UHGV virus genome: UHGV-1424210
Origin: a virus
DNA: 10,134 nucleotides
Direction: 5' to 3' (one strand)
Under the pieces are notes generated by a model. That model saw only the letters and a list, made by a program, of their open reading frames with translations, was not told where the DNA came from and ran no database searches. Below, piece by piece: positions 837 through 7,250 of this stretch; position 1 is the first letter of the stretch, and each line of letters starts with the position of its first letter. A program made the position numbers and the translations under genes.

Positions 837-2075
837 TCAAGAATTTTGGGGGTAAATTCGCGGGGTCATAACAACGATTTTTTCATCATTGTTCTGGAGA
901 AGCTCGAGACGGTCTACCCATAGATTAAGAGCATCACGTTTTGCATCAAGGTAGCGGGAGTGGTTATAGACTCGTTGCATCCCTGGCATCTGGTGGGCTG
1001 TAAGCTGCTCGACAATATGCGGATCCACGCCTAAATCGTTCAGCATGGTTGTAAATGTGTGCCGGATATCGTGTAACGTCCAGGGGGCTTGATTAATTCG
1101 TCTGTGCGCTGTTCTTCCGTACTCTGCTACCGAAGATTGTCCTTTCAGTTCACCAAGCAATAAGCCTGTGTGTCTGTTCTGCTCCACCAGTTGCGTGACG
1201 AACGGCAAAATGCTTTCCGGTATTGGCCTGAATATGGCGACCTTCGTTTTGCTGTGCTCCTTCGGTACTGTCCAGAGCATTTCTTTAAAATCCCACTCCT
1301 GCACCTCAGAGCGCCTTAGCTCAGTGGTACGGCATCCAAAAACAATCAGGAGGCGAATTAGGGCGCTGTAGTATGGCGGGAATATTTTGTCATCCAGGGC
1401 GCGGAGTAATTCCCCAAGCTCCTTATTTGTTAGTACGCGCTCGCTCACTTCTGCTTTTTTTCCCACATCACCGACAACCATATCATCAAGAACGTTGCTG
1501 ATTGCGTATCGTCGTTTTCGGCAGTACTTAAGCGCCTGTTTGCATACCTGTAGCAAAAATCCGGCAGATACAGGGCTTCGCTTTGCCATCTGGTCAAAAC
1601 ATGCCAACCAGTGCCGTAGCTCGCATTTTTCCAACGGCAAAGCGCCAATCTGGCTGATTATGTGTTTATTGATCCGGCTTTTCAGTGATTCGTAGTCAGT
1701 GCGCTTTTCCTTTGCATACGATTCAAGCCAGTAAGTGAGCGCTTCCTTAACTGTCACGGGGGCTAACGCATCCTGTACAGCACGATTAAGCTCATAGCGC
1801 GGATTTTTCCCCTCAGCCAGCCAGGCGCGACACTGTGCTGCTTTTTCCCTGGCTGCTTTCAGGCTCAGATCGGGATAATTGCCCAGTCTCAGACGTTCCG
1901 GTGATACCTGCCTACCAGTTCCGGCCCTGTAAGTGAAATACCAGGTTAACAGGCCGCTGGTGGAATGTCTTACGCTAAGATTGCCACCGTCATTAAAAAA
2001 GGCGTTTTTTGTGGTTGGTGATCCGCTTAATTTTCGTAAAAGAGTGTCGCTAAGTCTATGAATTGCGCTGCTCAT
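837..2075 (-). CDS. int: Site-specific tyrosine recombinase (P4-type integrase), 412 aa
   Basis: Full-length ORF starting with ATG at 2075-2073. C-terminal catalytic-domain signatures: conserved Arg in LIVFGCRTTELRR, His-x-x-Arg box WTLHDIRHTFTT, and a C-terminal Tyr region QRVYNHSRYLD. Overall resemblance to P4/CP4-57-type integrases. Confidence 0.9.
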   Translation of the reverse strand: MSSAIHRLSDTLLRKLSGSPTTKNAFFNDGGNLSVRHSTSGLLTWYFTYRAGTGRQVSPERLRLGNYPDLSLKAAREKAAQCRAWLAEGKNPRYELNRAVQDALAPVTVKEALTYWLESYAKEKRTDYESLKSRINKHIISQIGALPLEKCELRHWLACFDQMAKRSPVSAGFLLQVCKQALKYCRKRRYAISNVLDDMVVGDVGKKAEVSERVLTNKELGELLRALDDKIFPPYYSALIRLLIVFGCRTTELRRSEVQEWDFKEMLWTVPKEHSKTKVAIFRPIPESILPFVTQLVEQNRHTGLLLGELKGQSSVAEYGRTAHRRINQAPWTLHDIRHTFTTMLNDLGVDPHIVEQLTAHQMPGMQRVYNHSRYLDAKRDALNLWVDRLELLQNNDEKIVVMTPRIYPQNS

Positions 2076-3324: not shown

Positions 3325-3485
3325 TTTTATTCGTCATCACCACCAATGCAATATATTGATATGACTTGATGTTTTATTTTTCGGTGTCGATTTCGATTGT
3401 TTTTTGTTCATCACTGACGCATAACGCCCACCAGCGCAACGCTGAAAGCCAGTCAGTAAACTGGCTTCGGTCATTGTGCACTACG

Positions 3486-4028
3486 TTACTTGTCTTTATC
3501 CGGCTGAAACTTATCAGGCACATTTCCGGTAGTTTCCATCAGATAATCGGACAGCATTCGCGGGATGTTTTCATCAAGTTTTGTGCATGCGTTACAGGCT
3601 CTGACAACTTCTTTTTTCAGGCCATCCAGCATGACGGGGGTCATCTGTGGGAAGCTCCTTTGCATAGTAAGCGGGAGGCTGTCCATGATTGATGAAATCT
3701 GACTCGCCAGTTTTGAAAGCGCGTACATGCAAAACTCTGTATCAATCACGTCACCGCGATCGCGCTCGTTTTTAAGTTCCTGCGCCTCCGCCTGTGCTGT
3801 CAGTAATCTGATCCTGACTCGTAAGAGTTCATCATCATCAATCTCGCCTTTGTCGTTTGTAAGCTGGCTAATTGCATTGTTAACCCTATTGTCTATCACG
3901 CTGGCAACATCATAAAACGCCTCACGGCCTTTACGTTCAACGGGAGTCACTCCCCACTTGTCGAATGCTGTAGCACTTACCCGGCAGCTTTGCGCCATGG
4001 TTTTTTTGTTCATCAGGTGCGATTTCAT
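3486..4028 (-). CDS. Terminase small subunit, lambda Nu1-like
   Basis: Full-length collinear similarity to lambda Nu1 as recalled: RLLTAQAEAQELKNERDRGDVIDTEFCMYALSKLASQISSIMDSLPLTMQRSFP… versus lambda RLTRAQADAQELKNARDSAEVVETAFCTFVLSRIAGEIASILDGLPLSVQRRFP…; C-terminus ENIPRMLSDYLMETTG versus ELIPGLLSEYIEQSG. The ORF-track start at 4031 is TTG; ATG candidates are 4028 and 4013 (MNKK…, matching lambda MEVNKK…). Confidence 0.85.
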   Translation of the reverse strand: MKSHLMNKKTMAQSCRVSATAFDKWGVTPVERKGREAFYDVASVIDNRVNNAISQLTNDKGEIDDDELLRVRIRLLTAQAEAQELKNERDRGDVIDTEFCMYALSKLASQISSIMDSLPLTMQRSFPQMTPVMLDGLKKEVVRACNACTKLDENIPRMLSDYLMETTGNVPDKFQPDKDK

Positions 4029-4129
4029 CAATATCCCAACTTGGTCAAGGTTTCAGGTTGGTGTGTTGGTGTTATCTTTCCCTTTTTATTCATGGAGATA
4101 GAGCAAACAACAAAACCACCACCACCACC

Positions 4130-4215
4130 CTGAAAAAGCTCATAAATAGCGAAAAACCGCAAGGTCGCCGCCCCGTAGCCTACCGGATCGCCGGAAAGGA
4201 CCCGCCAGCCAGAAC
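4130..4215 (-). other. Lambda-type cos site (cosQ/cosN-like); cosN cohesive-end sequence at 4162-4173
   Basis: Minus strand reads GGGCGGCGACCT at 4173-4162, identical to the lambda 12-nt cohesive end as recalled. Both flanks also resemble lambda: CGGGTCCTTTCCGGCGATCCGGTAGGCTACG upstream and TGCGGTTTTTCGCTATTTATGA downstream. About 135 bp upstream of the terS start, as in lambda. Confidence 0.8.
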
Positions 4216-4229
4216 GGGACCTAATTTCA

Positions 4230-4613
4230 TCAACCAATCAACTTATAGCGACCATCCCGTGCATTGCGACGTACACGCTCAATCTTGAGGCATAGCGCCG
4301 CATCTGGCTTTTTTGGGACAGGTACGCGGCAATATTCAGAAGCTCGAGGAATATTGTTTATCCAGTCGATCACTTCACTTAAATACCAGGCCTTACGCCC
4401 TTCCGTAACCTGTACGCGCTCGGGGAACTCTCCGCGAGCCTCAAGGTTTAGCAATGTGCGACGGCTAAGGGTAGTAAGTTCCATCACCTGATTCATATCA
4501 ACAAGGCGTTCACTTAAACGCATTTTGTCAGCAATAGCCTTTAATTCCTCTACTGCTGGATCCGGATACATCATTTCGGCAATTGGCTTAAGGTCATTGT
4601 AATGATTCTGCAT
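4230..4613 (-). CDS. AlpA-family HTH protein with an approximately 45-aa N-terminal extension (127 aa)
   Basis: C-terminal part VMELTTLSRRTLLNLEARGEFPERVQVTEGRKAWYLSEVIDWI matches the AlpA/excisionase-like HTH pattern. ATG at 4613 is preceded by SD AAGGGGGA at 5-nt spacing. Sits between the D-like gene and cos. Confidence 0.75.
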   Translation of the reverse strand: MQNHYNDLKPIAEMMYPDPAVEELKAIADKMRLSERLVDMNQVMELTTLSRRTLLNLEARGEFPERVQVTEGRKAWYLSEVIDWINNIPRASEYCRVPVPKKPDAALCLKIERVRRNARDGRYKLIG

Positions 4614-4624
4614 TGTATCCCCCT

Positions 4625-4966
4625 TTACACACGAGCCAGCGGCTGAACAGAAATACCTGAGCCAACAAACGCGGCAACCTTTGCCGACAGTTCTTTTACA
4701 GACTCAGGCCAGTTCAGAGCATCAACATTTAAAACACCTGTCTTATAAACCTGTGCCTGTGTTTTTTTCGCTGTGTCGATTTGTACAGCGGAAACATAAA
4801 CCGCTTTGCCTGCGCTCGTTCCATCCCATACCACTAGCGCACCAGTTGCATCTTCCTGCATCAGTGGCGTAAACGCAGGTATTACCCCTTTATTGGCTGA
4901 AAATATCCCCAGCGTAGTAACCAGTGCTTCAGTGCCAGACATGAGTTCAGTGTAATGAGTAGCCAT
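4625..4966 (-). CDS. Head decoration protein, lambda gpD-like (113 aa)
   Basis: Similar length to lambda D (110 aa), with shared motifs THY, TPLM, WDGT, KTG, WPE and a C-terminal AF-G-x-IS. SD AAGGGGGAG upstream of the ATG at 4966. Starts 10 bp after the capsid gene stop. Confidence 0.8.
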   Translation of the reverse strand: MATHYTELMSGTEALVTTLGIFSANKGVIPAFTPLMQEDATGALVVWDGTSAGKAVYVSAVQIDTAKKTQAQVYKTGVLNVDALNWPESVKELSAKVAAFVGSGISVQPLARV

Positions 4967-6895: not shown

Positions 6896-6935
6896 AGTTC
6901 AGATCTCAATTTTTCGTATATATATACAAAACAGT

Positions 6936-7250
6936 GCGGGTTATGCGGGTTAGCGGGTTATCTTCGCTTGCTAAGTATTTTTTATTCCTTAATATCAATA
7001 CATTACAAAATTAACTGTTTACTGTTTAGCCGTGGCGTAACCCGCAAAATGCTCAAAATAACCCGCAAACGGGGTTTTTTCTGCGGGTTACGCGTGGCTG
7101 TTTGCTGTCACTTCCTGTTATTCATCTGCGGGTTATAATCGCACTTTTGCGGGTTATAACTGCCGTTTTGCGGGTTACGTGCGGGTTATTGATTTCCTTT
7201 TTATTCATGCAGTTAATGCACTTATACACAGAGTAACCCACATAACCCGC
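6936..7250. repeat. Iteron array (9-bp GCGGGTTAY) flanking an AT-rich stretch: candidate replication origin
   Basis: Direct copies at 6936-6944, 6945-6953, 6954-6962, 7083-7091, 7128-7136, 7149-7157, 7170-7178 and 7181-7189. Inverted copies (TAACCCGC) at 7036-7044, 7058-7066 and 7242-7250, plus a degenerate one near 7233-7240. AT-rich region 6962-7030. Immediately downstream of the Rep stop at 7274. Confidence 0.7.

Follow-up and report, generated by a model that had tools for sequence, protein, structure and literature searches.

A putative island-specific cosB ahead of the small terminase gene in a satellite of the EcCICFT073 lineage

The cos region and its conserved blocks

The window analysed here is a stretch of 10,134 nt of the virus genome UHGV-1424210, and our subject is the spacer at positions 4029-4129, which lies between a lambda-type cohesive-end site (cosN) and a small terminase gene (terS). 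The minus strand of the window encodes a DUF927 primase, a single-stranded DNA-binding protein (SSB), a gpE-like capsid protein, a gpD-like decoration protein, an AlpA-family protein and TerS. This is the gene content of a phage-inducible chromosomal island (PICI) of the EcCICFT073 lineage, an element of ~10 kb with an integrase gene (int), an alpA-type regulator, primase/replication, capsid-related and packaging genes, and neither tail nor lysis genes. The spacer is a real cosB, and the sequence comparisons described below make it very probable that the island's own TerS recognises it. It is not novel in kind, but a variant of phage cosB sites and of the island-specific cosB found in EcCICFT073.

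Positions p are counted from the cohesive end on the minus strand, with p1 at 4173 and the terS ATG at p146 (4028). The features of the region are the following:

4190-4204, minus strand: cosQ-like block CGGGTCCTTTCCGGC, 31 to 17 bp upstream of the cohesive end
4158-4176, minus strand: cosN, aligned with the lambda and N15 left ends; the 12-nt cohesive end GGGCGGCGACCT is 4173-4162
4139-4152 (p22-35), minus strand: conserved TCGCTATTTATGAG, common to lambda, N15 and rpp-type islands, 93% identity across clades
4106-4129, minus strand: R3-equivalent element, (GGT)5 at p45-59 (4115-4129), then TTTTGTTGTT at p59-68
4106-4124 (p50-68), minus strand: conserved core of the R3 equivalent, TGGTGGTGGTKTTGTTGTT, 93% between clades
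4088-4102 (p72-86), minus strand: equivalent of I1, the integration host factor (IHF) region, TCTATCTCCATGAAT; aligns with Monarch-like TATATCTACTTGATAAG
4054-4068 (p106-120), minus strand: R2 equivalent CAACACACCAACCTG, inverted relative to R3; holds the TerS-proximal octamer GTTGGTGT (4057-4064, plus strand)
4065-4072, minus strand: distal octamer copy, a lineage-specific duplication, not conserved
4029-4041 (p133-145), minus strand: R1-like element AGTTGGGATATTG, oriented as R3; overlaps the terS ribosome-binding region
3486-4028, minus strand: terS, 180 aa, Nu1 family

The sequence GGGCGGCGACCTTGCGG at 4157-4173 (minus strand) has one mismatch in 17 to the lambda-type cosN, where 0.01 matches are expected by chance, and a second cosN with up to three mismatches was not found in the window. 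The order cosQ, cosN, spacer, terS on the minus strand is that of lambda. The cosQ block CGGGTCCTTTCCGGC is 94% identical in nine distant-clade satellites, and is conserved in lambda-like, Monarch-like and EcCICFT073 cos sites.

An original prediction, made from this DNA alone, had singled out two repeats as candidate elements of a cosB, and its placement of them between cosN and terS is borne out by the lambda-type cosN upstream of a Nu1-family open reading frame (ORF). The perfect (ACC)5 run at 4115-4129 is confirmed both by reading the sequence and by Tandem Repeats Finder (ACC x 5.0, 100% match). The three matches to GGTGGTGGT in the window overlap one another and all lie inside this tract (0.07 expected; 0 of 200 shuffles reach three). 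The tandem octamer also exists (GTTGGTGT x 2.0, 100% match by Tandem Repeats Finder), but it lies at 4057-4072 and not at 4055-4070, the earlier placement being 2 nt low. A two-copy octamer is ordinary by itself, with nine comparable arrays reported in the window by the same program, and this one gains significance only because it is conserved in relatives.

Relatives were retrieved by the TerS protein, independently of any DNA motif, and (GGT)3 was found upstream of terS in 92 of the 94 loci obtained in this way. A contig scan with the single sequence gave nothing, and the same scan made with an alignment yielded six loci. As elements in their own right the two repeats fared less well than their cores: of the 57 unique sequences, 34 have three GGT units, 15 have four and 6 have five, and the tandem ACACCAACACACCAAC is seen in 8, the others having AATCAAT, AACCAAT or AAACAAT there. 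What is conserved is instead (GGT)3 followed by KTTGTTGTT, together with one inverted copy of ACACCMAC. With a single exception, the sequences differ in GGT unit number through base substitutions that leave the length unchanged, and (ACC)5 itself arose when two transversions extended a pre-existing GGT periodicity.

A weighted conservation profile, built from 71 unique upstream sequences, resolves into discrete blocks: cosQ, cosN, TCGCTATTTATGAG (p22-35), TGGTGGTGGTKTTGTTGTT (p50-68), TATC..TGA (p74-84) and CAAYACACCMACYTG (p106-120). A further motif, AAGTTGGTGTATT, directly before the start codon, is conserved in the E. coli clade only. Identity to the window was also calculated across clades, for nine satellites of the Enterobacter/Kosakonia/Superficieibacter/Citrobacter group whose TerS is ~55-58% identical:

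p36-49: 0.45
p50-68 (R3 block): 0.93
p69-105: 0.44
p106-120 (R2 block): 0.80
p121-145: 0.26

The spacing of these blocks is also tightly constrained. Of 57 unique sequences, 55 have the GGT/KTT junction of R3 at p57 and 56 have the R2 core at p110; a 3-bp slip is seen in one sequence only, the triplet repeat notwithstanding. Such rigidity fits the known sensitivity of lambda to the distance between cosN and R3 (PMC4669245, PMC9026076). The original prediction had held that its claim would fall if homologous elements shared no motif in this spacer, and conserved motifs are present.

The remaining elements are more variable. In the window the R1-like AGTTGGGATATTG is weak, with three mismatches to the family consensus GGTTGGTGTATTG; in O157-type relatives R1 is an exact inverted copy of R2 (AATACACCAAC / GTTGGTGTATT), and in the Enterobacter clade the element is missing. 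It drifts without compensating changes in R2. In the I1 region the window-type sequences retain only TATC and TGA, whereas Monarch-like phages have a site with one mismatch to the IHF consensus WATCAANNNNTTR, as read by eye.

Phage cosB sites and the TerS recognition helix

Lambda R3 occupies bp 50-65, with contacts at 55-63, and N15 R3 (GAGGTTGTTGTT) occupies bp 48-59, where packaging suffers from block mutations of bp 48-53 or of bp 54-59, and it is critical that R3 lies at the right distance from cosN (PMC9026076, PMC4669245). We checked both R3 sequences. The p50-68 block overlaps the R3 of lambda and of N15 and therefore stands at the R3 position, and it agrees with an R3 site (~48-65 bp from the cohesive end, at fixed distance) in position, conservation and spacing alone. 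The lambda R-site sequences were not found in the window.

A close counterpart of the spacer is the three-part cosB of Monarch-like prophages, described by Feiss and colleagues (PMC4669245). Monarch R sequences were read from two loci found here by motif scan, L325 and L248, which are true phages with lysis genes upstream and a TerS carrying the QAFDKWGV helix; the large terminase (TerL) of L325 is 97% identical to lambda gpA, and L248 ends within terS. The search pattern TATGA...GGTTGTTGTT was too loose, giving 120 matches that were mostly chance, of which seven distinct cos regions (eight loci) pass a cosN filter. In L325 and L248 the site consists of R3 GGTGGTGGTTGTTGTTTT, an A/T-rich middle TATATCTACTTGATAAG, an inverted R2 AAATACAACAACCTGA and R1 GGTTGTTGTATTG, and the window aligns with both without gaps from cosQ through R2. 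The Monarch R core GGTTGTTGT is replaced in the window by GGTGGTGGT in R3 and by GGTTGGTGT in R2 and R1. Relative to Monarch, R3 has G for T at p54 and p57, R1 has a single T-to-G change, and in R2 one A has become C (ACAACAAC to ACACCAAC). GTTGTTGTT is found only 9 bp further from cosN. The p54 and p57 differences fall inside the N15 block bp 54-59, mutation of which impairs packaging (PMC4669245).

From its sequence, then, the spacer reads as a derived N15/Monarch-type cosB, unrelated to the lambda R sites. The earlier statement that unrelated sequence replaces the R and IHF sites of lambda thus holds for lambda itself and not beyond it, as the region is homologous to, and in register with, the three-part N15/Monarch cosB. 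The window shares with Monarch the layout of R3, A/T-rich middle, inverted R2 and R1, and with both N15 and Monarch an N15-type DNA-binding domain of TerS (FDKWGV helix). N15 has a simple cosB, in contrast to the three-part sites of the Monarch-like prophages and the window. The R3 of Monarch and N15 has GGTTGTTGT where the window has GGTGGTGGT, and the R2 and R1 of Monarch have GGTTGTTGT where the window has GGTTGGTGT. Their helix starts with Q and is phage-borne, whereas that of the window starts with T and belongs to a satellite without TerL, and the R2-R1 spacer of Monarch is much longer. With lambda (R3-I1-R2-R1) the window shares the order and orientation of the sites and has a similar R3 coordinate and R3-R2 distance, and with gpNu1 it shares a homologous TerS fold and C-terminal half; the R sequences are unrelated, a clear IHF consensus is wanting in the window, and TerS identity is only 37%. 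In two marine prophages with the Q-type helix (L134, L135), GGAGTTGTTGTTT or GGTTGTTT occupies the R3 position, with an inverted copy inside terS as in N15. Two EcCICFT073-like islands, L254 (4192-4460) and L351, carry an unmodified Monarch-type three-part cosB followed by neither terS nor rpp, and represent a fourth packaging-module variant on the same backbone.

The terS ORF matches Pfam PF07471 (Phage_Nu1, E=9.6e-23) over residues 63-147 only, and its C-terminal half is Nu1-like. The closest phage TerS is N15 gp1 (47.5% identity), followed by lambda Nu1 (37%), and in the alignment the N-terminal domain is of the N15 type (...VSATAFDKWGVTPVERKGREAFYDV in the window, ...ISVQAFDKWGVQPVEKRGREVFFDV in N15). 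The recognition helix is not identical to that of N15: TAFDKWGV preceded by SA in the window, QAFDKWGV preceded by SV in N15. The T form is present in all 57 unique window-type sequences. An AlphaFold model (predicted local distance difference test score, pLDDT, 69.7; ~72-81 over residues 1-50) shows the order beta, alpha1, alpha2, beta-hairpin, alpha3, and its predicted DNA-binding domain superposes on those of lambda TerS and RppC. Foldseek alone returned MerR-like matches, none of them significant, and a literature search for satellite TerS with Nu1 returned nothing relevant. We also considered the ORF as an Rpp and rejected this, since its sequence matches no solved structure, not even RppC, and BLASTP against RppA gives E=1.4.

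The protein is a mosaic. In the sister islands L003 and L014, a TerS of 194 aa has a C-terminal half almost identical to that of the window joined to a phage-21-type DNA-binding domain (PRTIERWQ), and the R sites there are 21-like. Conversely, the Superficieibacter satellite L131 (6001-6501) has the window-type DNA-binding domain and cosB, and its C-terminal half is a close match to lambda Nu1 (50% identity across the full alignment, the identities being concentrated in that half). Because L131 joins a window-type domain to a Nu1-like half, this suggests that TerL-binding modules have been swapped to match local helpers.

In the full set of unique cos regions assembled here, which spans five module types, the R3 class strictly follows the helix type. 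The TAFDKW helix goes with GGTGGTGGT in 55 of 57 cases, the two exceptions being degenerate variants, the Q[AG]FDKW helix with GGTTGTTGT in 8 of 8 and Rpp with ACCACCACC in 14 of 14, and the 21-type and lambda-type helices each go with their own R sites. In the reverse direction, all 110 IMG/VR matches to cosN plus the GGT motif lie upstream of a satellite terS, without adjacent TerL. Breakpoints are seen between the DNA-binding domain and the C-terminal half, and never between cosB and the DNA-binding domain in the sample. Among deposited phage genomes none matches the window beyond the cosN part, and no phage TerS reaches 50% identity to that of the window, the best match lying below this value. 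The candidate cosB of the original prediction is upheld by the conserved blocks at the R3 and R2 positions, their fixed spacing, the co-variation with the DNA-binding domain and the absence of this cosB from deposited phage genomes; the R1-like element at 4029-4041 had been overlooked. The Shewanella prophages L132 and L133, which have the TAFDKW helix, were dropped as an independent test of the pairing of helix and site, as they have no recognisable cos near terS.

Proposed use of the site and competing readings

We put at about 75% the probability that the segment 4029-4129 (minus strand) serves as cosB in a cos-packaged PICI of the EcCICFT073 lineage, with predicted contacts for the island's own TerS, which would recruit the TerL of the helper. 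The first contact of TerS would be the R3-equivalent TGGTGGTGGTKTTGTTGTT, 50-68 bp from the cohesive end, and the second the inverted R2-equivalent CAAYACACCMACYTG, at 106-120 bp, while the R1-like site just before the start codon may be accessory. The Nu1-like C-terminal half of TerS would recruit the gpA-type large terminase of the helper, and this enzyme would nick the adjacent lambda-type cosN and package the island DNA. The site derives from an N15/Monarch-like three-part cosB. Each R-like site has T-to-G changes, and with them the recognition helix has come to begin with T in place of Q; these changes probably shift packaging specificity away from phage genomes. It is from sequence that we infer the binding of TerS, the use of the helper TerL and the discrimination against helper DNA.

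Several points weigh against this interpretation. No convincing IHF site was found in the window between R3 and R2, the match to the consensus being poor. The T-to-G position differs between R3 and R2/R1, and the exact site boundaries are uncertain. Less than 150 bp separates cosB from the 5' end of terS, so that linkage alone could account for their co-variation. The R sites are 1-2 bp, and the helix 1-2 residues, away from the Monarch type, which makes cross-recognition possible, and N15 TerS tolerates a quite different lambda R3, N15 terminase packaging lambda DNA (PMC4669245), so that the specificity may not be private to the island. Finally, a 12-bp core, TGGTGGTGGTGT, occupies the top strand at p50-61 in window-type sites and the bottom strand at p53-64 in rpp-type sites, and its inversion in rpp islands, together with an unrelated helix, defies a simple reading of one helix, one site.

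The most serious rival is that the cosB is not private at all, and that the small terminase of an N15/Monarch-like helper reads the site as well as, or instead of, the island TerS. The absence of gaps in the alignment with Monarch-like cosB and the change of only 1-2 bp in each R site would fit this, as would a helix that differs by Q to T (plus V to A in E. coli) and the islands L254 and L351, which have neither terS nor rpp and apparently ride on helper specificity; the packaging of lambda DNA by N15 terminase despite a dissimilar R3 (PMC4669245) points the same way. The G variants are, however, fixed in 55 of 57 sequences, always with the T-type and never with the Q-type helix, and occur in no deposited phage. 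The p54 and p57 changes lie in a block essential for N15 packaging (PMC4669245), and an island with a full terS of its own would gain little from a specificity identical to that of the helper. We regard the sharing of specificity with a Monarch-type helper as a serious rival, though a distinctly improbable one.

It is far less likely that the conserved blocks have no part in packaging and instead act on terS expression as a promoter, an operator or an mRNA hairpin. Sequences on the R2 and R3 sides do form a 13-nt, 92% complementary inverted repeat (4051-4063 / 4123-4135) that folds in silico into a long hairpin, R1 overlaps the ribosome-binding region, and an AlpA-family regulator is encoded just upstream. 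The fold is, however, no better than that of shuffled sequences (z = -1.27) and matches no Rfam family, and the drift of R1 is uncompensated in R2. Sigma-70-like sites in 3400-4700 number zero (1.6 expected). The upstream ORF varies (AlpA or a 137-aa protein) with cosB constant, cosB tracks the DNA-binding domain of TerS, and the blocks stand at the R3 and R2 coordinates of phage cos sites.

A reading of the G-rich tract as a Chi or Chi-like site (GCTGGTGG), shielding cut concatemers or injected DNA from RecBCD, is very improbable. Exact Chi occurs at p48-55 on the cosN-to-terS strand in 18 of 57 unique sequences, from both the E. coli and Enterobacter-group clades, and the window has the one-mismatch form GGTGGTGG at 4119-4126; against this, the two 5' bases of Chi are not conserved, invariance beginning at p50-51, and conservation runs 13 bp past Chi into GTTGTTGTT. 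Chi is position-independent in the genome and would not need a fixed cosN spacing, and rpp-type islands are without Chi at the corresponding place. Least likely of all is that the repeats are functionless simple sequence, produced by slippage or chance duplication: the variation from three to five GGT units, the lineage-specific second octamer and the commonness of two-copy octamers in 10 kb allow this for the extra GGT units and the distal octamer only, and for the cores it is already largely refuted by conservation across genera at fixed spacing between diverged flanks and by unit-number differences that are length-preserving substitutions, not slippage, in all but one sequence.

Going beyond the recognition of cosB by the island TerS, it is conceivable, although we consider it doubtful, that a naturally re-coded TerS/cosB pair, with two or three T-to-G changes in the R sites and the Q-to-T change in the helix, makes a Monarch-type signal private to the satellite, and that the C-terminal half, exchanged among lineages, captures the helper TerL and may poison the helper terminase through mixed oligomers, so that one protein would do the job of Rpp; TGGTGGTGGTGT, which rpp-type islands have in inverted orientation, would also be a common island code, perhaps derived by a deletion of R3 and I1 that brought an inverted R2 to the R3 position.

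Relation to rpp-type islands and genomic setting

EcCICFT073 was located in CFT073, where the order is int, HTH (helix-turn-helix), Icd-like, DUF4222, primase, SSB, capsid, decoration, small ORF, cos1, rppA (144 aa) and small ORF. The gene order of the window element matches it (major capsid protein, decoration protein, small ORF, cos, then rpp or terS), and the terS of the window therefore occupies the exact slot of rppA. The upstream 127-aa ORF was also considered as an Rpp and rejected, as it is of the AlpA family (8c3t).

The cosB of EcCICFT073 cos1 was described together with RppA by Fillol-Salom et al. (2019; PMC6739421), and Murialdo and Feiss (2022) proposed an R3-PICI at bp 48-65, identical at bp 55-63 in four islands (PMC9026076). 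In our reading EcCICFT073 cos1 has ...GAAGGTGACACCACCACCACTTGATTAA..., with ACCACCACC at p55-63, which is the proposed R3-PICI segment. The cosN-proximal ACCACCACC marks true cos sites in 25 of 26 IMG/VR matches, the other being a chance match, and an rpp gene follows every true site whose downstream sequence could be read. On the cosN-to-gene strand the window has the complement of ACCACCACC (the GGT repeats), and its ORF, of 180 aa with a Nu1 C-terminal half, departs from the 139-154 aa without a TerL-binding tail expected of rpp. All rpp-linked cos sites have the reverse complement of TGGTGGTGGTGT, and its distance from cosN is nearly that of the core in window-type sites (L217 15608-15622, compared with window 4113-4129). 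One possibility is that a deletion of R3 and I1 from a window-type site put the inverted R2 at the R3 position; compare ACACCCACTTG of the Enterobacter clade with ACACCACCACCACTTG of the rpp type, in spacers of 145 and 101 bp.

The window thus shares with EcCICFT073 the island backbone, the slot between the capsid module and the island end, and a helper-like cosQ and cosN with a non-helper cosB preceding the gene of a specificity protein. In EcCICFT073 that protein is an Rpp of 144-153 aa that must pair with the helper TerS, whereas the window encodes a full-length TerS of 180 aa, to which RppA has no detectable similarity (E=1.4). The core is in the opposite orientation, and the EcCICFT073 site is simple, with a 101-bp spacer, compared with the three-part site (R3, inverted R2, R1) and 145-bp spacer of the window. 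The TerS of the window would also resemble that of the pac-type Gram-positive PICIs (SaPI), in which a satellite-encoded TerS pairs with the helper large terminase and steers packaging towards the satellite DNA (PMC6092414), but SaPI packaging is headful (pac) with an unrelated TerS family, while the window has cos-type packaging with a lambda-like cosN and defined R sites. In PICIs of Proteobacteria, capsid-related and small-terminase genes were already known as core components (PMC10085698).

A second, inverted cos lies downstream of terS or rpp in relatives including EcCICFT073 (p1 at L217 16309, L002 8788, L013 4736 and L254 4727). Classified cos regions without a downstream gene have a cosB of helper type, 21-like CATGTC (EcCICFT073 cos2) or Monarch-like.

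To our knowledge, packaging of Gram-negative cos-type satellites has been worked out for one solution only, the hijacking of helper TerS by Rpp. The window points to a second solution on the same island backbone, namely a complete small terminase with its own three-part cosB. The switching of cos packaging specificity has so far been studied mainly with lambda and 21; the sister modules (rpp-type, 21-type TerS, window-type TerS and protein-less Monarch-type cosB) form a natural series on the minimal changes that switch specificity, and offer candidate orthogonal cos/TerS pairs for engineered transducing particles.

Of 5,426 complete E. coli genomes, 937 (about one in six) match at least 80% of a 156-bp query that covers cosN and cosB (window 4025-4180), and related modules are also present in the Enterobacter group, Citrobacter, Kosakonia and Superficieibacter. 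A 99.9% identical relative, L001 (strain FDAARGOS_1262), is a complete island of ~10 kb that adjoins tRNA-Ile, with the integrase at the far end; the integrase of the window's own terS-bearing element falls outside the window. Positions 1-2263 (integrase at 837-2075, minus strand) are 99.9% identical to the int/HTH/Icd-like start of a different satellite found elsewhere in E. coli. This match at its left end suggests that the window contains two satellites, arranged in tandem and facing the same way, which meet somewhere in 2263-2944. The sequence ATTAACTACACC forms two separate two-copy arrays (2099-2122 and 2331-2354) just upstream of the integrase gene of the second satellite, which may be attachment (att) or arm-type sites. 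Iteron-like arrays between the primase and SSB genes, TGCGGGTTA x 3 (6935-6961) and the 21-bp unit TGCGGGTTATAACCGCACTTT x 2.4 (7127-7177), are likely the replication origin of the island.

Relatives adjoin or sit within lambdoid prophages, a circumstantial hint of induction and high-frequency transfer by a helper phage. Several satellites are placed inside lambdoid prophage head regions, as seen ~2 kb downstream of terS in L006-L011, L017 and L130, and those of the Enterobacter/Kosakonia group directly precede an E (capsid) gene that is truncated at its 5' end, with FI, FII, Z and U after it. In L052 (7399-12315) the satellite integrase comes after lambda-identical Nu1 and A. The islands may target helper morphogenesis genes for integration. 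In the IMG/VR contigs L128, L024, L026, L066 and L071 the satellite capsid-cos-terS module lies within a few kb of a lambda-like gene A; L128 has only ~1 kb between A and the satellite capsid gene, with no space for a replication module, an arrangement that could stem from a deletion, from recombination or from misassembly.

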